From: a virus
Length of the DNA stretch: 64,000 nucleotides
Reading direction: 5' to 3' (one strand)
IMG/VR virus record: IMGVR_UViG_3300036772_000294
Span: 1-64,000 of that record
The notes under the pieces are model-generated. The model was given only the letters and a program-made list of their open reading frames with translations. It searched no databases and was not told the origin of the DNA. Shown piece by piece: positions 15,487 through 59,662 of the stretch (its first letter is position 1; each line of letters begins with the position of its first letter). A program made the translations under genes and the position numbers.

Positions 15487-15718
15487 CTGGCGTTCCTTTT
15501 TTAGAATGCCGCGCAGTGCCTGTATTACTTTTCACAGCCGGATGATAGTTGAACTCTTCCTTGTGCATCCACAGTACTTGACAAGAAATCTCATGATGAC
15601 GAACAGGAGATTATCAAACCATATTATTACTTAATTACCTGATTTAAATAATTTATTTCTTCGTTGATGCATGAGCAATGGGGTAAGCTTAACTATTTAT
15701 TTTTGATATAAACTAAAG

Positions 15719-15728
15719 TTTAGGATAA
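15719..15728. promoter_or_regulatory. Operator-like motif TTATCCTAAA (copy 1)
   Basis: Exact reverse complement; intergenic, upstream of the 15813 ORF. Confidence 0.65.
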
Positions 15729-22639: not shown

Positions 22640-22649
22640 TTTAGGATAA
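22640..22649. promoter_or_regulatory. Operator-like motif TTATCCTAAA
   Basis: Exact copy upstream of the uhr-rdgC operon. Confidence 0.65.
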
Positions 22650-22650
22650 C

Positions 22651-23271
22651 TTATTTTTTAAACTCCACCGCTGCGCTTTTTGAGCTGAGCATGCCCCCCG
22701 CTTTAAGGTTTATGTTGCCCGCGGCTTCCAGATCTAAATCACTCCCTGATTTTAATTTCATGCCCCCGTCGGCTTGAATAAAGGCATTTTGAGTAGTGAT
22801 GATGTAGATCTGTCCTGTGTCGTTCATACCCATCGTTGTATTGCTGGCCATGTGTGTAACGGACCAACTGCCATTAGGGCTGCGGTGCTCGAGCAGTCCG
22901 TTGCGGTTGTAAACGAAATCCTCGGTCGGGGTGTTGGGTGACACGTCAGGCGCGCCTTCTACCGCTGGTGGCTGATAACCTGGCCCTCCCCATGATTCAG
23001 GGGGAACATTTGGGGTGCCGCCGGGAGCATCCTGAGCGGCTCCAACGATAAGAGGGCGACGGGTATCCCCGTTATAGGGGAACTCTACCCACACATAATC
23101 GCCGACTTTACACGGGACAAATGCGCCGCCGATGGGGAGGAGGTATTCCGCCCAGGGGCAGGCTTCATCCGGGACTGCATCCCATGTGCCGACGAGCTTT
23201 ATCTGTGCGCGCATGAGCTTGTCAGGATCTATGGTGTTGGTGATTTTGGCCCGCATACGTAAATTAGTCAC
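22651..23271 (-). CDS. Baseplate spike gp5-like (gpV OB-fold)
   Basis: DPDKLMR...PWAE...VGDYVWVEF..GDTRRP; beta-helix C-terminus; start position uncertain. Confidence 0.85.
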   Translation of the reverse strand: MTNLRMRAKITNTIDPDKLMRAQIKLVGTWDAVPDEACPWAEYLLPIGGAFVPCKVGDYVWVEFPYNGDTRRPLIVGAAQDAPGGTPNVPPESWGGPGYQPPAVEGAPDVSPNTPTEDFVYNRNGLLEHRSPNGSWSVTHMASNTTMGMNDTGQIYIITTQNAFIQADGGMKLKSGSDLDLEAAGNINLKAGGMLSSKSAAVEFKK

Positions 23272-24253
23272 CGTTGAATACTCCCATTTCAACAAAGCAA
23301 CGATAATTATCGCCGGTATCGAAGTGCGTTACTTTCGTGGCAACCATAACAGCGGGCATCGACTCGTCTACACTGCTTTCGCTGTTATCGCGGTGAATGA
23401 CGCACTTTATCGGGTAGCCTGGAGTGATGGCACCGAAACCAGGCGTATCAAACTCAAGCGCCGGTGCGAAGTAGTTACGCAGGTTGTTTAGTTGTGCTAC
23501 GTCCCCAGCTGGCACCAGCCTGATAGGGTCGCTCTCGCCTCCCTTCGAGCTGCGTAAGCCTTCGGTCATGGAGTAACTGACGTAGCGCACTTTGTGCTGA
23601 CGTTCCAGCTCATAATCCTTACTCAGAATTTTGAAGGACAACATCGAGTGTCGGGCCTTCGCGTTGTTGGCCTCGATAGTGAGCATTGCTGACTGGCCGG
23701 ATAACCGGGCCATGTCTTTGAAATGCAGCTTGCCGCGGGACCACCAGCATAACGCACCATGATCTTTGGCTATCTGACGAAGGAGCTTAGATGGCAGCCC
23801 ACCAACATTCAGATGATATGTTCCCAGCCCGTGAAATGTATCCGCGTCGATCGCAGCACCTGGAGCGAGCTCGCGCAGTATCGCGGCGGGTTGCTTTTCA
23901 ACAAAGAAACGCGTCGTACTACTTGGCGTCTTAAGCTTGAATGTTGTTTCCGAAAACGCGTTGATCTCAATGATTGGGCCAGCCATTGGCGGCACGACAA
24001 CGGTAAAGCGTTCTTTGAAGATAGTGCCCCCCCCATCGGGGTCGCCTAATGACGCCTCTATCAAGGTCCCTTTCTGCACCTTCATATTGTCGTTATACGT
24101 ATGGTCGTTGTTGTTCAGCCTGATTATCAGCTGTGGACCGCTCATGTCCGACGTTTCTATGTATGCCAGCTGGGCAATGCGTTCGACGGGTATTTGCCTA
24201 CCCGCTAACGTCAGGTGCTGAACAAAGAAACTGGTCTGATTGTTATCGCTCAT
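23264..24253 (-). CDS. Baseplate hub gp6-like
   Basis: LLRQIAKDHGALCWWSRGKLHF hub motif; synteny 24-6-5. Confidence 0.7.
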   Translation of the reverse strand: MSDNNQTSFFVQHLTLAGRQIPVERIAQLAYIETSDMSGPQLIIRLNNNDHTYNDNMKVQKGTLIEASLGDPDGGGTIFKERFTVVVPPMAGPIIEINAFSETTFKLKTPSSTTRFFVEKQPAAILRELAPGAAIDADTFHGLGTYHLNVGGLPSKLLRQIAKDHGALCWWSRGKLHFKDMARLSGQSAMLTIEANNAKARHSMLSFKILSKDYELERQHKVRYVSYSMTEGLRSSKGGESDPIRLVPAGDVAQLNNLRNYFAPALEFDTPGFGAITPGYPIKCVIHRDNSESSVDESMPAVMVATKVTHFDTGDNYRCFVEMGVFNGD

Positions 24254-25037
24254 GCAGGACGCTCCCATAGACGCGCACTGTCGTATTCACCGGCTCTATA
24301 AATTCGGCTTCCAGTATCTCGGACACAACGTCTATTGCGATGGCATTTGCGTACAAGCGCCCCTCGTCGCGGCTTACTGACTGTGAGGCGAATGAAACCT
24401 CCATGGGGAATTCCACCTCAGTGTTGAGCATGACAGGCGCGCCGCCGAGGCGTGTTTTAGCCTGGAACGTTTTCGTCCTTTTTCGTGTGCTTCGCCGCAT
24501 ATAGGTTGCGAGCGTTGTACTCATCATGGAAAGGGAATGTTTTTCATCGGAGATCAGCACGACGGTATAGGTGAACTTCACAAACGATTTGTTAACGATG
24601 GCGTAAGCGAGCTGTCTGGCTGTTCCCTCGGTCCTAACCAACGTACCGATATTCTCGATATCGATGTAGGCGTCAGTGTCGAACATGCCAAAATCGACGC
24701 TGCGGCTAACATGGATAACGGGTAGTGCGTTGTGGTTGATATTTTTGCCGTGTTCACCCTTCCTCCCTTCTTTGGCCTTTGTTATGGCGTTTACCAGGTC
24801 CATAGGCGTGTCATATTCGCCTACAAATACACGGTCTTTAGGGTCGCGCGCCAGGAAGGCACGGAAGGGATCACTTTCGCGGCGCTGGTCGGTGATTCGT
24901 ATGCCGGTGAATATCTCCAGGATGTAATTCCCAAAGGCTGTATCGACGTCGCTCAGGTCCGTTATTTCCCGCTCACCAGTTAATGTTTTATTGGGGATTT
25001 GAAACTGCGCTAAAAGCTCTCTTGTCTCAGTGCTCAT
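24243..25037 (-). CDS. Tail terminator gp24-like
   Basis: 264 aa; synteny. Confidence 0.6.
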   Translation of the reverse strand: MSTETRELLAQFQIPNKTLTGEREITDLSDVDTAFGNYILEIFTGIRITDQRRESDPFRAFLARDPKDRVFVGEYDTPMDLVNAITKAKEGRKGEHGKNINHNALPVIHVSRSVDFGMFDTDAYIDIENIGTLVRTEGTARQLAYAIVNKSFVKFTYTVVLISDEKHSLSMMSTTLATYMRRSTRKRTKTFQAKTRLGGAPVMLNTEVEFPMEVSFASQSVSRDEGRLYANAIAIDVVSEILEAEFIEPVNTTVRVYGSVLHER

Positions 25038-26921: not shown

Positions 26922-27244
26922 TACTCGATACCTCCGCCTTCTGAAAAATGCCTGATGCGTTCGCGTATCCAGGTTCGGGAAGGGAGGCGGATCTCGTTAC
27001 CAACGGGCAGGGGGGAGGCCTCGTCATCGCCACCAGCCAGGAGGGTAATAACCCAACGTAGAATTTCCGTCTCATAAGCCCTGAATGCAGCGAGGTCTGG
27101 GCGGTATTGTTCGTCGGGCTGGATGGTATAGAACTTGCCTTCAGCACCGTAGTCGCCGCTTTGCGCAAGAATGGCGTTATACAAAAACGAACGGATGATC
27201 GGGTCTTCTAAATTTCTATCGTCCAGGCGGGAATATTCAGTCAC
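26921..27244 (-). CDS. Baseplate protein gp26-like (LysM-like)
   Basis: YRPDLAAFRAY...LRWV...LPVG..IRLP. Confidence 0.75.
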   Translation of the reverse strand: MTEYSRLDDRNLEDPIIRSFLYNAILAQSGDYGAEGKFYTIQPDEQYRPDLAAFRAYETEILRWVITLLAGGDDEASPLPVGNEIRLPSRTWIRERIRHFSEGGGIE

Positions 27245-27897
27245 AAGATGTTCCCCTTCCCGGTAAGTGGTGAGGCGAGTTTGGCCAGCCTCTCTGCCTC
27301 CAGCTTGTCATATGCGCTAAGCGTGTTCACCAGCGGTGCAATCACTGATGGCGTTCGTTCGCTGCGCCGGCCGCCAAACATTTTTTTGAGGTAGCCGATA
27401 GATGAGACGTCGTTGTAGGAGATACCGTAAACGGCCAGAAGGAGGAGGGCGATTTCCGGGGTTACTTCCGGCCAGTTAATGCGGTACATCGCCTCGCCCT
27501 TGCCGTCACGGTCCTCATCAACGATTGAAGCCGGAATATCGTAACGACCGGAGCAATCCGGGAAGGATATCGCCTGCTGGATGCCCAGCTCTTTGTAGTG
27601 TTCAAGTGCCACAACAATTACAGGCTTGCCGGTGGCAATATCGATTGAACCTAATCGGCAGTGGCTACCATAACGGCGTGAAATACGGGGCTGCGCTTCA
27701 TCAATCAGAATAATGGCGTCGGCCATTGCATACCTGGAAAGCTCCTCCTTCAGCACGGCATCCATTTCTTTGCGGGATTTTGGTAATGTTTTGGCCCCCA
27801 TGAAGTGCAATGTCTGGGATTCACTCGCGTAAACAGCTGTGGCGTACTGGCAGGGGGTGGTATTGAGTACAGCGGCAAAAATTGGTTTATTGCTCAT
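27241..27897 (-). CDS. mat: Maturation control protein Mat-like
   Basis: Downstream of ref as in P1; YRINWPEV motif; about 218 aa. Confidence 0.6.
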   Translation of the reverse strand: MSNKPIFAAVLNTTPCQYATAVYASESQTLHFMGAKTLPKSRKEMDAVLKEELSRYAMADAIILIDEAQPRISRRYGSHCRLGSIDIATGKPVIVVALEHYKELGIQQAISFPDCSGRYDIPASIVDEDRDGKGEAMYRINWPEVTPEIALLLLAVYGISYNDVSSIGYLKKMFGGRRSERTPSVIAPLVNTLSAYDKLEAERLAKLASPLTGKGNIL

Positions 27898-27912
27898 GGC
27901 GGTCCTCATATG

Positions 27913-27937
27913 AAAAAAGCCGCACTAGGCGGCTTTT
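27913..27937 (-). terminator. Intrinsic terminator (bidirectional shape)
   Basis: AAAAGCCGC-CTAGT-GCGGCTTTTTT on the minus strand. Confidence 0.75.
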
Positions 27938-27986
27938 GGTATATCTAAGTTTTGGGTAAAGCAAAGAACTACATGGACAAAGGTAA

Positions 27987-28058
27987 TGGCGGCTGGTGAA
28001 GAGAAAGTCTGCGCGAGCCCGGTGTGAATGTAATACAAGTTCCTCTCCCTTTACCAGC
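27987..28058 (-). ncRNA. Putative structured trans-acting sRNA (~72 nt)
   Basis: 16-bp closing stem GCTGGTAAAGGGAGAG/CTTTCTCTTCACCAGC with G-U pairs that favour the minus strand; 3' CGCCA; TTGCTC-N16-TATTAT promoter; downstream terminator; loop complementary to late-gene leaders. Confidence 0.65.
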
Positions 28059-28064
28059 ATTGAT

Positions 28065-28092
28065 ATAATATCTCATTTTAGGATAAGAGCAA
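28065..28092 (-). promoter_or_regulatory. Promoter with operator-like motif in its spacer (28077-28086)
   Basis: TTGCTC-TTATCCTAAAATGAGA-TATTAT. Confidence 0.6.
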
Positions 28093-28659
28093 TTAAATTT
28101 TTTTGTCGCCTTCAGCAATAGTGACAACCATCTCAAGCAGGTCCAGTTGCGATCCGTTAAGACGTTCGAACTCTGCCTTCCCGCCGGTTGCCATATCGGC
28201 ATGAACCGGCACCAGCCAGGGATATTGTGCTCTCATTGCCGCCGGTGCTGCATGCTGGTGGTGCCATTTGCACAGGGGGAGCTGCTTCTTGTGCGCTCCC
28301 GGCCTGGTCCTCCCATCAATGTGGTGTAAGGATACTTCATGGCTGATAACCCCATGCACGTAGCATGCAATGCACGGTAGGGAACCGATGGACTGAATGA
28401 AGCGAGCCTCTTCAGCTGTCGGTGTGCGGCCCTTAAGCCCCCTGGTACTTTGACTACGCACAGGCAAGGCGTTGAGCTTAGATTTTTTCTCGCGTTGTCG
28501 TGTCGCGCGCCGCTCGGCGGCCGCATATTGTTTCTCATACTGCCGCTTACGGTAATCAGGGTCTGCCAGGCGTTCTCGCTGGCGTTCGATCGCGCACGCC
28601 GTTGCTCGCTTTGCTGCCTCTAAAGCGTTCTGCCGTCGCTCTTCAATTGATTTAGCCAT
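28093..28659 (-). CDS. ref: Recombination enhancement function nuclease Ref (HNH)
   Basis: GLKGRTPTAEE, CIAC, HHIDGRT, LPLCKWHHQ. Confidence 0.95.
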   Translation of the reverse strand: MAKSIEERRQNALEAAKRATACAIERQRERLADPDYRKRQYEKQYAAAERRATRQREKKSKLNALPVRSQSTRGLKGRTPTAEEARFIQSIGSLPCIACYVHGVISHEVSLHHIDGRTRPGAHKKQLPLCKWHHQHAAPAAMRAQYPWLVPVHADMATGGKAEFERLNGSQLDLLEMVVTIAEGDKKI

Positions 28660-28807
28660 AACTTCCCGTTTATGATATTTGCGCAATGTTTAAATGCTGT
28701 AAGGCGTTTGATTACCCCCTGCTTTCCCAGGCGGGGGTAATATTTCATACCTGCTCCCACTCAGCGCCGGTGTCGACCGATACTATTCCATGACATACCC
28801 TCTCAAA

Positions 28808-29066
28808 GAGGTTTGACGGTCAATGATGTAAAAAACCACTTTAAGGCGATACTTGATTGTTTACATTGCGGTTTAATGGAGGAAGTTTTCCCTTTAAAAT
28901 ATCTTCCGGTAGCGTGAATGTATAATGCCCCAGCATATTGATATGGCCGTGTAGAAGTGGTGACAGCCGGGCAATATGTTCATCCTTCAGTGTTTTACCC
29001 GTTGTTGTCCTTATATGCGAAAGTGCTTCCTGTATGTAGAGTGAATTCCACAGCACCACTGCATTA
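28808..29066 (-). mobile_element. Tn3-family remnant: degenerate 38-bp IR plus TnpA C-terminus
   Basis: GAGGTTTGACGGTCAATGATGTAAAAAACCACTTTAAG at 28808-28845; VLWNSLYIQEAL...RLSPLLHGHINMLGHYTF. Confidence 0.85.
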
Positions 29067-42507: not shown

Positions 42508-42517
42508 TTATCCTAAA
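42508..42517. promoter_or_regulatory. Operator-like motif TTATCCTAAA
   Basis: Exact copy upstream of pacA. Confidence 0.65.
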
Positions 42518-42617
42518 CGTTGGCTTTATTCTATTAGATAAATACCCATGAGTGTGAATAGCGTGGTTTGACGATGTGGCCGGTTCAGTGCAGCGTGAAT
42601 TTGCTCTAATTAATTGC

Positions 42618-47113: not shown

Positions 47114-47143
47114 TTATCCTAAACATTGAATTTATTTTGTCAA
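47114..47143 (-). promoter_or_regulatory. sigma70 promoter with overlapping operator-like motif
   Basis: TTGACA-N16-TAGGAT, the -10 lying inside TTTAGGATAA (47114-47123). Confidence 0.7.
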
Positions 47144-49718: not shown

Positions 49719-49728
49719 TTATCCTAAA
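49719..49728. promoter_or_regulatory. Operator-like motif TTATCCTAAA
   Basis: Exact copy upstream of lxr. Confidence 0.65.
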
Positions 49729-50134: not shown

Positions 50135-50165
50135 TTATCCTAAACTCTGATTTTATATTGATCAA
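50135..50165 (-). promoter_or_regulatory. sigma70 promoter with overlapping operator-like motif
   Basis: TTGATC-N17-TAGGAT; motif at 50135-50144. Confidence 0.65.
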
Positions 50166-56900: not shown

Positions 56901-57860
56901 GCCGTCGAGATCGAACCACTTGCCTTTAATGAAGGTGTCCCACAACACGTTGGTATGCTTCAGGAATGGCGCTTTTTCGGTCAGGATGCGATCGGCCAGT
57001 TCTTCGGGGTGTTTACGCAATACCCAGACGTCTACCGCCGTGGAGGTGCCGTTATTCTCAAATGTCCCGGAGGGTAGCCGGTGCGCCCCCAAAAATTCGG
57101 CCTTACGAGAAACCTGCTCACGTAATTTTTTGTGCGTTGCGCCGGTCGTCATGCCAAAGGGTACGACGATGCAGATCATGCCGCCGGCTTTGACCTTATC
57201 GATAAGGCGCAGGATGAAATAACGGCCAATGTTGCTTTCTTTGGCATACGCGGGATCGAGGTTGGCAAACTCGCCTCGGGAATTACCAAAAGGCACATTG
57301 CCCACACAGCTGTCATAAGTGCCGTCGGGCGTGCTGGCGGCCAGCCTTTCAAATGGAGAGGTGATTACGGTGTCTTCGGGATGGAGCAGCTGGTTGATAC
57401 GGCTGGAGACGTCGCTTATCTCCGTGGCGGTCATAATAACCCCGGTTGGCTTGGTTTCGTGAAATACGCCGGTGCCGGAGGCGGGTTCTAAGGTGTTGCC
57501 GGTATCTGCGCCGTACCCAGCCAGGAGATCCCAAATTCCTTCCGCAACATATTGGGGAGTGTAATATTCATGCTCATTTGCACCGATCCCCCCCTCCCCT
57601 GTATACGCTGCCAGCACCTGCCTTTCTTCGTCGGTCAGGGTATCGCCTGGCGAGAATTTTCTAAGGAGCGCAACGGCTGCGGCGTTAGCTTCCTTTCGTT
57701 CTCTTTCGAGTGATCGTCCTTCAATTTTCTCAACACCGAACTGTGCACTCTTGCGCCGTTGGGTAAACAGGTGCAGCACACTCAGTAGAGCGCCGACACT
57801 CGTAGCACGGTTAATTGCTTCCACCGCGCGCCGCTTGTTGGGCTCAAAATCATCACTCAT
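50973..57860 (-). CDS. darB: Defence-against-restriction protein DarB (MTase + SF2 helicase)
   Basis: EYYTP, EPASGTG, GNVPF; GTGTGKT, VDEGH, TATP, QRNGRGAR; 2295 aa; divergent from the portal gene. Confidence 0.92.
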   Translation of the reverse strand: MSDDFEPNKRRAVEAINRATSVGALLSVLHLFTQRRKSAQFGVEKIEGRSLERERKEANAAAVALLRKFSPGDTLTDEERQVLAAYTGEGGIGANEHEYYTPQYVAEGIWDLLAGYGADTGNTLEPASGTGVFHETKPTGVIMTATEISDVSSRINQLLHPEDTVITSPFERLAASTPDGTYDSCVGNVPFGNSRGEFANLDPAYAKESNIGRYFILRLIDKVKAGGMICIVVPFGMTTGATHKKLREQVSRKAEFLGAHRLPSGTFENNGTSTAVDVWVLRKHPEELADRILTEKAPFLKHTNVLWDTFIKGKWFDLDGKRFLHGTVVQGYRMSVQNDQIKPAGIKAKLAQRFDSRILWDEFELVEPMVERYAEGDDRLINDVWYRFENERWVINDARGVSDITEAKYGAASYDELAGQLKDCSATLGKPFDHILAAWQTFPALFDANLSQAMALAQSQPVELRERIFRGSLIGVQIATLQDAQSNKLRPDYIEPLRADVARLVAREVSRFGAATGKVSGIRGNHAKNWLKFAASTDLDGNLSALLKGQLDIGGTITHNTADHVQVVSHLFSQIDLDPITLEAFRQHFTGELPEDDNEALSALAHVEGIAITASGDLMPMDRATSGDISALTSSLNGALAVIDNEAIRQNYLRQLVEVRRRRKWTEVDDLDFNLNARWFDRSLVLEYLTEQGYDKLSYTGDVTVDDNGIMNADRDYHGRQGVFSGYRYGTVVSRDKTNGIMKSSYKRVKQKDAFLEQLENYLNGNKPRGVYAADYMARIKVLEAGFNDWIRQHDEIDNLVQEYNDTFNGHIPFEYSDAPLGLKGISGRVIPAAHQNSAARRASEDGRGILGHGTGTGKTVTMMATEAFNFENGRAKRTATVVPKAVYENWFHEAHNFYSAEALSTMFFVGLDVISDENGQPQRVPVLDDEGKPRVNQHTGEEEYRLNVKLVDGDTVKQRMHLIPQSNYRMVVMTKEQYAKIPMKEETIRDHAYDVLYNAAEAGRVNLDGTKHRDANAKSRILAKASDTGTAKEHDYPYFEDMAFDNVIVDEGHNYRNSYAAGREAGQLAYLPSPSVAQSARDMAVKNAYMLSKNNGRGVLLGTATPAVNSPIDAFNMLSHVMTMEEWGKLGIQTPDDFVKVFGATDTVLVQKLSGEVEEKEGLVGFQNLSGLRGIFHRWVDLKSVKDVSDSVKIPDLEEHTVEAPMTGAQAAIYEELRQRAEALSNQNGPKADAEESRDAHGHLIEKDSIFAIIRDMDRVCTDLDLYRRQMTFRLPAQYETAIRGLAEALPAKTKAVSEDSDETYDVEAQVSIALRGEVIELVVPEDYEGEVMKRLSAFKIDASAVSHPIMPKYSALIEKVKRGYEEGGKQIIFTDEKSQHEKLARILCAELGIDASEIGIINAASVAAAGKGKKKLKAVKPPREPKEDATEAEMEAYYTQKLAYEDYIAQSGELSLTGIESIAADYNEGRKRILICNKKAEVGINLHHGTTDIHHLTLPWTPASIDQRNGRGARTGSKQSKVRVHYYAGKGSFDEFRLSTLKRKKEWITTLFTSDEARMANADASDAADMSLLLAANPEERACRNAEMMEEAKTKAMAAAQKRAGIDLQNYIKASHAAKGDMDTLLADIEKQKQVFERDQARIEEVQNEMAQGQADYDAAMIEVRSESPVGYRYRVDAENAAFRMRNAKESLEKASKSINKAQAVLRKMERKVERQKKSESEIKRLRPTISKAIEAGLIEVPARILDRASEFYISKNGQFSTGETFAYDVARGIQSDAALCRIESIDFDSGIAELSQIYAPGTDRAGANRKVKTHVDNLRKRVTVSESEVSLRQWMMSGVWAKAISERLSKSQFQKYLADGSLTLNDKAIPFYDGDEINVRAGTTSSYSSRTQNIDAGWFKSNSMKIIYPDPTDDVLKTRLANWLREAEPTLTNKLKFAGETFIQAVMGENWKVVMESYGEQASESEIALFISDTLAMMRADDSLAKLISGANERDVIYLIANDRLPEQRGADFGYQARKRIPGRFANKGDFNAAIESMVNQLSAQAIDDCRNAVNQYGLRWMEEFESNLTVIDPGIVERLQRAMQRTESSGYAVVSGYQRTAAKYGEPLASMLNGSRYFADMVFAGLFAKSAVTAKMLATKNAYDVAMREVVEKLKAINAGGAEDFLNDIRLKIGLISPEELEAAKAKVEAAQTAAEEVDVSIDDLGLSVKKNTTRIRAKWGINFSEGGCYGIQDSRGKSGSLFKAKDELKDRFNAKYYNGRNAGEEFEGSWWLVSSSNNIEDVLSVIKSHA

Positions 57861-57899
57861 TTACTACTCTCCTGTCTCTCTATTGTACACTTCGCGCAG

Positions 57900-57909
57900 T
57901 TATCCTAAA
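57900..57909. promoter_or_regulatory. Operator-like motif TTATCCTAAA
   Basis: Exact copy between the divergent darB and prt genes. Confidence 0.65.
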
Positions 57910-57939
57910 AAGTGGGTTTATTCTAGAGGATTGTTAAGG

Positions 57940-59610
57940 ATGAGTAAGACCAAAAGGCGCACAGGCTCGTTGATGGGGGCGTTACAGCAGCTCTTTACGG
58001 GTTCTCATGCCGTCGACGCGCACGACTATGGTGCAGGTTATGAACAAGGCGGCGGCGGTGCATCCTTTCAGACTCAGGCACCTTCACAATTAACCGATGA
58101 CGGCATGGCAATGTTGTCGGCGGCCAGCACCGTTCAGGGAGAAGCAAAATTGCCGACGGCGCGCCGGCAAAAGCTCGCCGTCCTGGAAGAAATGGGAGAA
58201 TACGGCACGCTTGCCTCTGCTATTGATATTCACCTGGCGCATGCCCTGTCCGTAGACAAACAAACCGGTACGATTTTCCAGATCAAACCTCGCGCCCAGG
58301 GTGACGGGCAGATTTCCGCGGCTGACCGCGAGCTTGCCAGCATGCTGATGGGGGAACTCGGCGAGCCTATCAATGAATATCTGCCCAGCTGGATGCGGCC
58401 AACCGCAGTATTCGGCGTGAGCTATGTACGACCTTACGCAGAACATGGCCTGGGCATTAAGAGCTATGAGAGCTCTTATTACACCCTCCCCCACCATGTT
58501 CGCGAGTACGTGCGCGGCGGCGACCTGGCGGGCTTCACGAATGAATATTTCTATAAGCCAGACCATAACGGGATTCTATTAGCGGCCCCCTGGGAGCTCA
58601 TCCCTATCAAAATCCCTTACTGGTCGCCTTCGGCAAGTCAGGTCCCAATTGGGCGCGGTACACAGCGCTATTCTCTCCTTCAGGAACCGGCAGAACGCAC
58701 GCCAATCGAAACACAGAACTATGGCACCAGCCTTATAGAAAACTGTTACGAGCCCTGGTCCAATCTGAGACAGTCGATTAACGCACTGAAGGCCAGCCGC
58801 GCAAACGCCAGCCGTATCGACCGCATACTTGGCGTCCAGACCTCCCAACTCGACCCGGACCGCGCCGCGTCCTACACGCGCAACATCAACAACATTCTGA
58901 AAGATGATGCGGAGTACATGAGCCGACGCGCGCGGCAACAAGGCGTGACTCCCACGGTTGTGAACAGCGTGATCCCGATTATGGGTGACGGCAAAGGCGC
59001 GATGACAATCGATACCCAGATGATCGGGGCTGATATCGCGCACATTGAAGATATTATGTTCCACATGAAGCAGCTGTGTAGCTCCGCGGGTATTGATGCC
59101 TCCATGCTCGGGTTTTCTGACATGCTGGCCGGGGGCCTCGGCGAAGGTGGATTTTTCAGAACCGCGATTCAGGCCGCAATGCGTGCGCAGTGGTTGCGCT
59201 TTGCCGCTCAGACAGCAATTTATCGCAGTATTGATCTGCACCTGGCTTATAAAACAGGCAAGGTGTATCCCGCGCAATCACGTCCCTATTACCTGGAATT
59301 CAACTCCCTTAATACCGCGATTCAGGAAGAAGAAAACTCCGCCCGTGAAAGCCAGGCTAACTTTGCATCAATGGTCGTCACCGTCCTGGATCAGATGCAG
59401 AACGGGCAGCTGGCCCATTCGAAAACGCTAAAAGAAATCGTGCTGGGTAAGCAATTCAAATTCTCTGACAGTGAGGTACAAAACGTCATTAAAGAGCTCG
59501 CTGAAGCTCTACAGAAATCCGATACCGAAAACGATATGTACGAGTCGTTACGCAGGCTACCAGCCTCTGATGTGGAAGAAATGCTGCTCGAAGCATTCCG
59601 ACAAAAATAA
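57940..59610 (+). CDS. prt: Portal protein Prt
   Basis: 556 aa from the ATG at 57940; ETQNYGTSL and GGLGEGGF motifs; synteny. Confidence 0.85.
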   Translation: MSKTKRRTGSLMGALQQLFTGSHAVDAHDYGAGYEQGGGGASFQTQAPSQLTDDGMAMLSAASTVQGEAKLPTARRQKLAVLEEMGEYGTLASAIDIHLAHALSVDKQTGTIFQIKPRAQGDGQISAADRELASMLMGELGEPINEYLPSWMRPTAVFGVSYVRPYAEHGLGIKSYESSYYTLPHHVREYVRGGDLAGFTNEYFYKPDHNGILLAAPWELIPIKIPYWSPSASQVPIGRGTQRYSLLQEPAERTPIETQNYGTSLIENCYEPWSNLRQSINALKASRANASRIDRILGVQTSQLDPDRAASYTRNINNILKDDAEYMSRRARQQGVTPTVVNSVIPIMGDGKGAMTIDTQMIGADIAHIEDIMFHMKQLCSSAGIDASMLGFSDMLAGGLGEGGFFRTAIQAAMRAQWLRFAAQTAIYRSIDLHLAYKTGKVYPAQSRPYYLEFNSLNTAIQEEENSARESQANFASMVVTVLDQMQNGQLAHSKTLKEIVLGKQFKFSDSEVQNVIKELAEALQKSDTENDMYESLRRLPASDVEEMLLEAFRQK

Positions 59611-59662
59611 CCCGCCCTCCCCTGTTTCGATCAGCTGCGCGAGCCGATGGAGATAACAGAGC

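Follow-up and report, generated by a model that had tools for sequence, protein, structure and literature searches.

The DNA analysed here, referred to throughout as the window, is the 64,000-nt stretch IMGVR_UViG_3300036772_000294, which on sequence comparison is a deep-branching relative of phage P1. It is assigned to a contig of a metagenome-assembled enterobacterial genome. The region of interest lies between two genes of the minus strand. The gene ref (28093-28686, minus; with a match to the Pfam family RecA_dep_nuc) is the upstream neighbour of the spacer preceding mat, and the mat homologue was called as the ORF 27241-27909 (minus), with 35% identity to P1 Mat. Matching of P1-like records at the DNA level is confined to 56 bases of ref. 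No close relative of the ref–mat spacer or of Mat was found among phages, plasmids, 200-400 family genomes, genome contigs, IMG/VR and metagenome contigs, and an exact 24-mer from the loop described below had no match in metagenome or genome contigs. The family genome G171 carries an 81-kb phage contig, of which Mat and gp23 are 38% and 45% identical, respectively, to those of the window. The features of the spacer are as follows.

28065-28092, minus: promoter of the RNA and of mat, assigned from sequence
27913-28058, minus: predicted leader RNA, ~145 nt as folded, which begins at the inferred start and finishes in the terminator U-tract
27992-28058, minus: closing stem (28058-28043 with 28007-27992) and 35-nt open loop (28042-28008) of the centroid structure
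28019-28039, minus: loop element a′, CUUGUAUUACAUUCACACCGG, complementary to the gene 23 leader
28009-28023, minus: loop element b′, ACCGGGCUCGCGCAG, the seed of the earlier note
27913-27937, minus: intrinsic terminator AAAAGCCGC-CUAGU-GCGGCUUUUUU, with a 9-bp stem, a 5-nt loop and U6
27241-27897, minus: mat (maturation control), from the second ATG (27897) with the SD sequence GAGG at 27907-27904; the N-termini align across seven homologues

The promoter comprises a -35-like TTGCTC (28092-28087) and a -10 TATTAT (28070-28065) separated by a 16-nt spacer, with TTATCCTAAA (28086-28077) located within the spacer. This arrangement had been described in the earlier note, and is confirmed on the minus strand. 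Transcription would start near G28058, the first base of the stem, which was chosen because of its distance of ~7 nt from the -10. A simple consensus scan did not flag the promoter, and the -35 agrees with TTGACA at only three of six positions.

The TTATCCTAAA box is found in eight exact copies in the window, and in 12 copies if up to one mismatch is allowed. The expected number is 3.7, and 12 was reached in none of 100 shuffles. Every exact copy has a T-rich hexamer at N6, and the exact copies are intergenic, with the exception of a single copy that extends into the beginning of a called ORF. Copies stand ahead of the capsid gene 23, the portal gene prt and mat.

15719-15728, 22640-22649, 28077-28086 and 42508-42517: exact TTATCCTAAA-N6-(T-rich hexamer)
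47114-47123, 49719-49728, 50135-50144 and 57900-57909: exact TTATCCTAAA-N6-(T-rich hexamer)

Three of these elements (at 42508, 47114 and 50135) point toward stretches that have no called gene on that strand. The prt gene (57751-59610, plus; 46% identical to P1 Prt) has its likely start at the ATG at 57944, behind the late box, giving a gene of 57944-59610. The long minus-strand ORFs opposite prt (58090-58566 and 58579-59277) are shadow frames. The genes darB and prt are divergent in the window, unlike in P1.

In the annotation of the homologous P1 promoter, a -35 and a C1 operator are joined to a late promoter, the latter comprising a -22 box AAGTGACTT, four bases and the -10. The TTATCCTAAA box occupies the position of the -22 box in P1 LPmat, and in D6 AAATCACAAA is found at the same position ahead of both mat and gene 23. 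The P1 late box AAGTNACTT is confined to the interior of genes in the window, and the window phage appears to use TTATCCTAAA instead. The eight elements are probably the late promoters of this phage, with TTATCCTAAA replacing the P1 AAGTGACTT box.

The alternative that TTATCCTAAA is a repressor site is less likely than its being the late-promoter box. Compared with the P1 C1-operator consensus, only ATTGCTCT agrees at the mat promoter and the 17-mer differs at seven positions. A search of the whole window allowing up to three mismatches found no operator at the mat promoter, and the earlier description of the RNA as repressor-controlled was not borne out. The sole match in the window is TTTGCTCTAATTAATTG (42600-42616, plus; three mismatches), which adjoins a TTATCCTAAA element.

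The closing stem is formed by 6 + 9 base pairs, including two G.U pairs, around one A.C mismatch. The 16-bp stem and open loop of the earlier note are therefore present, as 15 pairs plus the mismatch. The loop contains CCGGGCUCGCGCAG at 28022-28009, and the seed includes GGCUCGCGCAG and GCUCGCGCAG. Element a′ occupies the position in the loop that is taken by the anti-capsid element in P1, JK004, D6, V39, G171, G052 and G361. The sequence CGCCA (27991-27987) follows directly after the stem. The terminator is located ~50 nt downstream of the stem and immediately before the mat SD; it was missed by a simple consensus scan, and there are weak, sub-threshold Rfam matches to terminator-bearing leaders and sRNAs over 27910-27987. 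Folding z-scores for the window leader are weak (about -1.3) and not significant.

On this architecture the RNA is best described as the 5′ leader of mat, ending at an attenuator-type terminator and ~145 nt in length if unprocessed. The earlier note had proposed an RNA of ~72 nt that ended with CGCCA and was followed by a terminator. The terminator exists, and its position leads to the longer leader instead of a free-standing, tRNA-sized RNA. A 72-nt tRNA-like product is not supported: CGCCA is conserved in neither G171 nor P1, ARAGORN found no tRNA or tmRNA in the window, nothing in the window reached the Rfam gathering score, and the proposed comparison with C4 gave no match to that model at E values up to 10 within 27000-29000. 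A leader peptide was rejected, the 57-aa frame from 28060 not being conserved, with an unrelated 18-aa frame in G171.

The mat leader in the P1 family

The order of late box and -10, stem-loop, spacer, terminator and SD-ATG of mat is also found in P1, in Cronobacter phage JK004, in D6 and in a Klebsiella plasmid, as well as in IMG/VR relatives and in the family genomes G171, G346, G052 and G361. The terminator is at the same place in P1, JK004, D6, the Klebsiella type, V39 and G171. The P1 leader is located at ~2703-2815 of NC_005856. Four of the ten pairs of the closing stem exhibit compensatory double changes among the P1-type leaders, and an identical copy of the D6-type leader stands in a relative with a Mat match of 84% identity across the first 128 residues. 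A conserved sequence, GGACGGCAC, falls in a different reading frame in each of P1, JK004 and L039, with the frame of JK004 stopping early, from which it follows that the leader region is non-coding. The mat leader is absent from Pantoea-type elements; the lineages that lack it are a Pantoea plasmid, L058 and G122.

A covariance model (R1) built from the leaders of ten relatives matched the window in the terminator part only, with 20.5 bits, a score that other terminators attain equally. Membership of the window RNA in the family therefore rests on position, architecture and capsid complementarity, and not on sequence homology. The RNA is placed on the mat strand between a late-type promoter and the start of mat, its closing stem surrounds a loop within the 30-45 nt of the family, its terminator lies directly before the mat SD, and its loop is complementary to the leader of its own major capsid gene. 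While it resembles the P1- and D6-type leaders in position, terminator and capsid-leader complementarity, it differs from them in its greater length (~145 nt), in a closing stem that is unrelated to theirs and in its late box. In addition its loop element is extended to reach pro and R, and its capsid site is removed from the 5′ end of the mRNA.

Two observations were made on relatives. The annotated mat CDS of P1 (250 aa) starts within the stem-loop of the leader and crosses the terminator (L009:817-929, NC_005856 2716-2828). Mat homologues align from MDKKIC at P1 2827, behind the terminator and SD, and the true start of P1 mat is probably 37 codons downstream of the annotated one, which falls within the leader RNA. 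A Klebsiella plasmid (L036/W05, OW967891.1) is a 118-kb conjugative IncFII plasmid on which mat and the leader RNA are both present. A query with the window's protein found no gp23 homologue on OW967891.1, and the RNA may persist there, on a phage remnant, without its capsid target.

Complementarity to the capsid gene 23 leader

Each leader was scanned against all the start regions of its own phage, with pairing scored without gaps or as a duplex of the loop by itself. The leader of capsid gene 23 (565-575 aa) ranks first or second genome-wide in P1, JK004, D6 and V39. The loop of D6 forms 17 perfect pairs with its capsid leader. In P1 the loop sequence CCCUUUUC has its partner GAAAAGGG in the gene 23 leader (58773-58860). 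Within the window there are two sites.

15519-15541, minus: gene 23 target site 1, CCGGCUGUGAAAAGUAAUACAGG, in the major capsid leader; the core GUGAAAA is kept in G171
15510-15516, minus: gene 23 target site 2, CUGCGCG, 7 bp; abuts the 5′ arm of the SD-covering hairpin

For these four phages the cognate pair outscores every non-cognate pair, with p = 0.0015, 0.007, 0.002 and 0.0005 for P1, JK004, D6 and V39, respectively. The ungapped score for gene 23 in the window is weak (p 0.09), and combining the five values by Fisher's method gives 3e-8, which is overstated as the lineages are related. Comparison of loop with capsid leader gave p 0.002 for G052 and 0.016 for G361, while G171 and G346 have ungapped matches of 9-10 bp that are not significant alone. 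As a duplex, element a′ of the window pairs with the gene 23 leader over an interrupted ~20 bp, in which CUUGUAUUAC-A-UUCACA-CCGG is matched with CCGG-C-UGUGAA-AA-GUAAUACAGG. The calculated energy is -26.5 kcal/mol, compared with -16.9 (sd 3.2) for shuffled sequences (p 0.01). The earlier note had identified this second complementary segment, at 15521-15541, and the duplex calculation upholds it. It had listed gene 23 last among its targets, for the 7 bp at 15510-15516; these are present, yet gene 23 emerges as the conserved main target.

From these comparisons, complementarity of the loop to the gene 23 leader holds in nine lineages, and loop and site co-vary. The earlier note had looked to covariation across relatives, and it is found in the manner in which capsid site and loop change together in the four cognate pairs. 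The one leader-less lineage with a readable capsid leader, G122, has no GAAAAG-type site in that leader.

In every lineage the first block of complementarity is succeeded by a second, shorter one: GGCAC with GUGCC in the P1 type, GCGCGGU with GCCGCGC in D6 and CGCGCAG with CUGCGCG in the window, and the G171 leader has an equivalent. The two elements run in the same 5′-3′ order in both RNAs, and are thus permuted. It follows that simple inversion of the loop sequence does not account for the capsid leader, and that a′ and b′ could not form one continuous duplex with gene 23; two separate contacts would be needed. The gene 23 leaders are predicted to fold so as to pair the SD or the start codon, in a structure whose 5′ arm is adjoined or overlapped by the target. 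The capsid site of P1 starts close to +1 of LP23, an annotated late promoter, and that of the relatives is at the 5′ end of the mRNA, whereas in the window ~200 nt separate the site from the nearest TTATCCTAAA box upstream of it.

The shared sequences might instead be DNA sites for one protein of drifting specificity, involving no pairing of RNA. The late box differs among the lineages (AAGTGACTT, AAATCACAAA and TTATCCTAAA), showing that proteins and their sites do co-evolve, and co-evolving binding sites could mimic a part of the co-variation. However, the complementary segments are always antisense to transcription, irrespective of whether the genes are on the same strand (window, JK004 and D6) or on opposite strands (P1). 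The mismatches within the loop–capsid helices are G.U, one partner belongs to an open loop that is closed off by a covarying stem while its counterpart is on SD-pairing hairpins, and the two elements keep their permuted order. We regard an explanation by DNA sites as very improbable.

A second possibility is that the structure is solely a cis-acting attenuator of mat, in which stem-loop and terminator would determine the amount of transcription that gets through to mat and the tail genes, for example by read-through of a late-modified polymerase, and that the complementarities have no function. A terminator stands between promoter and gene in every leader-bearing lineage, and in the MFE fold of the window leader the 5′ arm of the stem pairs alternatively with 27965-27950. 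Evidence for attenuator/antiterminator control of the neighbouring gene ref is cited in a review of P1 (PMC10695390). This explanation would leave unaccounted for both the tracking of the capsid leader by the loop in the nine lineages and the islands of identity at the seed and pro site described below, and no convincing antiterminator pairing with the arms of the terminator was seen. While an exclusively cis-acting role is improbable, a cis role and a trans role of the leader RNA are compatible.

The pro, R and darB leaders

Element b′ has its two best matches in leaders other than that of gene 23.

59635-59645, plus: pro target CUGCGCGAGCC, in the prt–pro spacer 18-28 nt before the pro ATG; 11 bp, perfect
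1409-1423, minus: target ahead of the R-like tail-fibre assembly gene (962-1396); 15 bp with one G.U

The scores of R (40) and pro (31) compare with a background of up to 24 over 70 start regions. When the 72-nt RNA was shuffled, a top score of 40 was obtained once in 300 trials and a second match of at least 31 in 2.7%. A shuffled-sequence null had been envisaged in the earlier note. In a census, 14-mers complementary to some start region with up to one mismatch are common, giving 249 overlapping matches across the window, so that anyone inspecting all the spacers would meet one by chance, and the R match alone would therefore fail a look-elsewhere correction. The sequence CTGCGCG is present in 23 copies in the window, so matches of 7-8 bp on their own are background. 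All four complementarities of the earlier note do exist, that of R extending to 15 bp, but with chance matches so common the case must rest on conservation. The darB match (57892-57899, 8 bp) was rejected as a target. In addition to the abundance of CTGCGCG, it is upstream of a likely -10 (TACAAT) and has no counterpart in G171. A third complement of the seed (23867-23878, minus; 12 bp with one G.U) is in frame as CTG CGC GAG CTC within the gene 23264-24268, and is probably a coincidence of codon usage.

Conservation can be assessed in G171. Its mat leader carries ACCCGGCUCGCGCAG, and the island ACC(G/C)GGCUCGCGCAG is common to the window and G171. Its pro gene has CAGCUGCGCGAGCCG before the SD. 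Besides the seed itself, the 81-kb contig has a single sequence that comes within two mismatches of the seed complement, namely CAGCUGCGCGAGCCGGU in the prt–pro spacer, 13 nt ahead of the pro ATG and immediately on the 5′ side of the SD. On pairwise alignment a 15-nt sequence of the pro spacer, CAGCTGCGCGAGCCG, is identical in G171 while its flanks have diverged, and the seed is likewise an island of identity within a diverged mat-leader spacer. The pro target is thus, on this alignment, co-conserved with the seed, which is conservation and not co-variation, in one relative. The earlier expectation that seed and targets would be conserved together stands for pro but not for R and darB, the G171 genes of which have no equivalent site upstream. 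The R site was found only in the window, and the R and pro leaders of P1, JK004, D6 and V39 have no complementarity.

The targets have a common predicted structure. In the R leader an SD-pairing stem is topped by the apical hairpin GACU-GCGCG-AGUC, and in window R, window pro and G171 pro (z -2.5 in G171) the target is located on the apical stem-loop, with a GCGCG loop, of an SD-pairing hairpin. Because R has the same hairpin shape as the other targets, we lean towards the R-like leader being a real target, on the strength of these folds.

The matches of R and pro could both be due to chance, with the capsid interaction alone being real. Such a reading would be in keeping with the frequency of complementary 14-mers, with the preferred codons CTG-CGC-GAG and their in-frame third copy at 23867-23878, and with the absence of matches from the R and pro leaders of P1, JK004, D6 and V39. 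It would require coincidence in several respects: a single loop element accounts for both matches, which are found 13-28 nt ahead of a start codon, G171 preserves 15 nt at the pro site as an island of identity, and three sites form the same type of hairpin with the GCGCG loop. We consider it unlikely.

The host of G171 contains type I-E CRISPR arrays (contig C1 1608629-1609557, L184-L193; contig C3 36346-36908). Their repeat, GTGTTCCCTGCGCGAGCGGGGATAAACCG, agrees with the complement of the G171 seed (L208:8957-8971) at 13 of 14 positions, corresponding to 10 contiguous pairs plus three. No such arrays were found in five genomes of the host genus of the window, where G000 is 78% complete. The match could be coincidence, or reflect a shared origin or an anti-repeat function, and we treat it as an unexplained coincidence. 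It is highly improbable that b′ is an antisense RNA directed against type I-E repeats, pairing with every repeat of the pre-crRNA and disturbing its processing; were this so, it would represent a novel type of RNA-based anti-CRISPR that acts as an anti-repeat instead of mimicking the repeat.

Proposed mode of action and relation to known RNAs

We propose the following sequence of events. The late-type promoter, with its TTATCCTAAA box six bases upstream of the -10 and its weak -35, would drive transcription from ~28058, and the structured RNA would be made first, consisting of the closing stem of 15-16 bp, the 35-nt open loop, the spacer and the terminator. Most transcripts would stop at 27937-27913, releasing the ~145-nt RNA, while read-through would yield mat and the baseplate and tail genes behind it. 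The terminated RNA would accumulate and act in trans. Element a′ (28039-28019) would pair with the capsid gene 23 leader, and b′ (28023-28009) with the second block of gene 23 and with the prt–pro spacer immediately upstream of the ribosome site of pro; the R-like tail-fibre assembly gene would probably also be contacted by b′, in its leader. Pairing would be initiated by loop–loop contact, followed by opening of the hairpins that hide the SD, so that translation would be activated.

Taken together, the RNA between this promoter and terminator is probably a trans-pairing regulator of the leaders of dispersed virion genes. Trans-acting coordination of virion genes was the central proposal of the earlier note. 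The co-variation with the capsid leader and the co-conservation of pro argue for it, while darB proved to be a chance match and R has no counterpart in a relative. The direction of the effect is more tentative. If the pairing is real, activation of translation by the opening of hairpins has somewhat short of an even chance of being correct on the predicted folds; it is favoured because the targets of pro, R and gene 23 sit on or abut hairpins that pair the ribosome site. Repression, or processing that depends on an RNase, is possible instead.

The same complementarity data could be read in reverse, with the capsid and pro leaders binding the nascent mat leader and altering its termination, thereby coupling the tail operon to the head genes. 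In the window and many relatives mat does stand at the head of baseplate and tail genes. Against this reading, 50-90 nt separate the paired loop from the terminator downstream, with no shared alternative pairing between them, and the location of the targets on SD-pairing hairpins looks built for control of the target. Reversal of the pairing is in our view quite unlikely, about as much so as a purely cis-acting attenuator, and we retain regulation in trans as the preferred reading.

Comparable phage RNAs are known. C4 of P1 and P7, and CI of P4, are structured phage RNAs in which two unpaired antisense elements contact two blocks of a target leader. The window RNA is similar to C4 (RF01695) and CI in being phage-encoded, of ~80-150 nt and having two antisense elements, and C4 comes from the same phage family. 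The differences from C4 are that the window RNA does not match the C4 model, that it is located before mat and not immI, that its putative targets are the leaders of virion genes rather than the icd/ant transcript, and that RNase P processing and a CCA end are unsupported, given the absence of CGCCA from G171 and P1.

A second parallel is provided by StxS and the lambda 6S RNA (PR′ to tR′), for which a late-type promoter closely before a terminator is described, the by-product being regulatory (PMC7547250). The window leader likewise has a promoter-proximal intrinsic terminator upstream of the first gene, but its proposed targets are the phage's own virion mRNAs instead of host genes, and P1 is not known to have a Q-type antiterminator.

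The proposed mode of activation has parallels. DsrA, RprA and ArcZ acting on rpoS, and RNAIII on hla, pair with the arm or loop of a hairpin that hides the SD and so free the ribosome site. The same mechanism is proposed for the window RNA from predicted folds only, and it differs from these in being the product of a leader and attenuator. The terminator hairpin with its U-tract is the only feature of an Hfq-type sRNA that is visible.

P1 has long served as a model phage, and enterobacteria commonly harbour phage-plasmids of the P1 type. The activator Lpa is credited with control of the P1 late genes, and the phage has a known antisense RNA in C4. We found no description of the mat-leader RNA in Rfam or in the papers searched. 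If the proposal is correct, a second RNA of the P1 family would add a post-transcriptional layer that couples the expression of head and tail genes. The window would represent a lineage of deep branching, where both the guide and its targets differ from those of the relatives yet are still matched, and it adds evidence for a second target (pro) and possibly a third (R), the first hint in these data that the RNA may have several targets.
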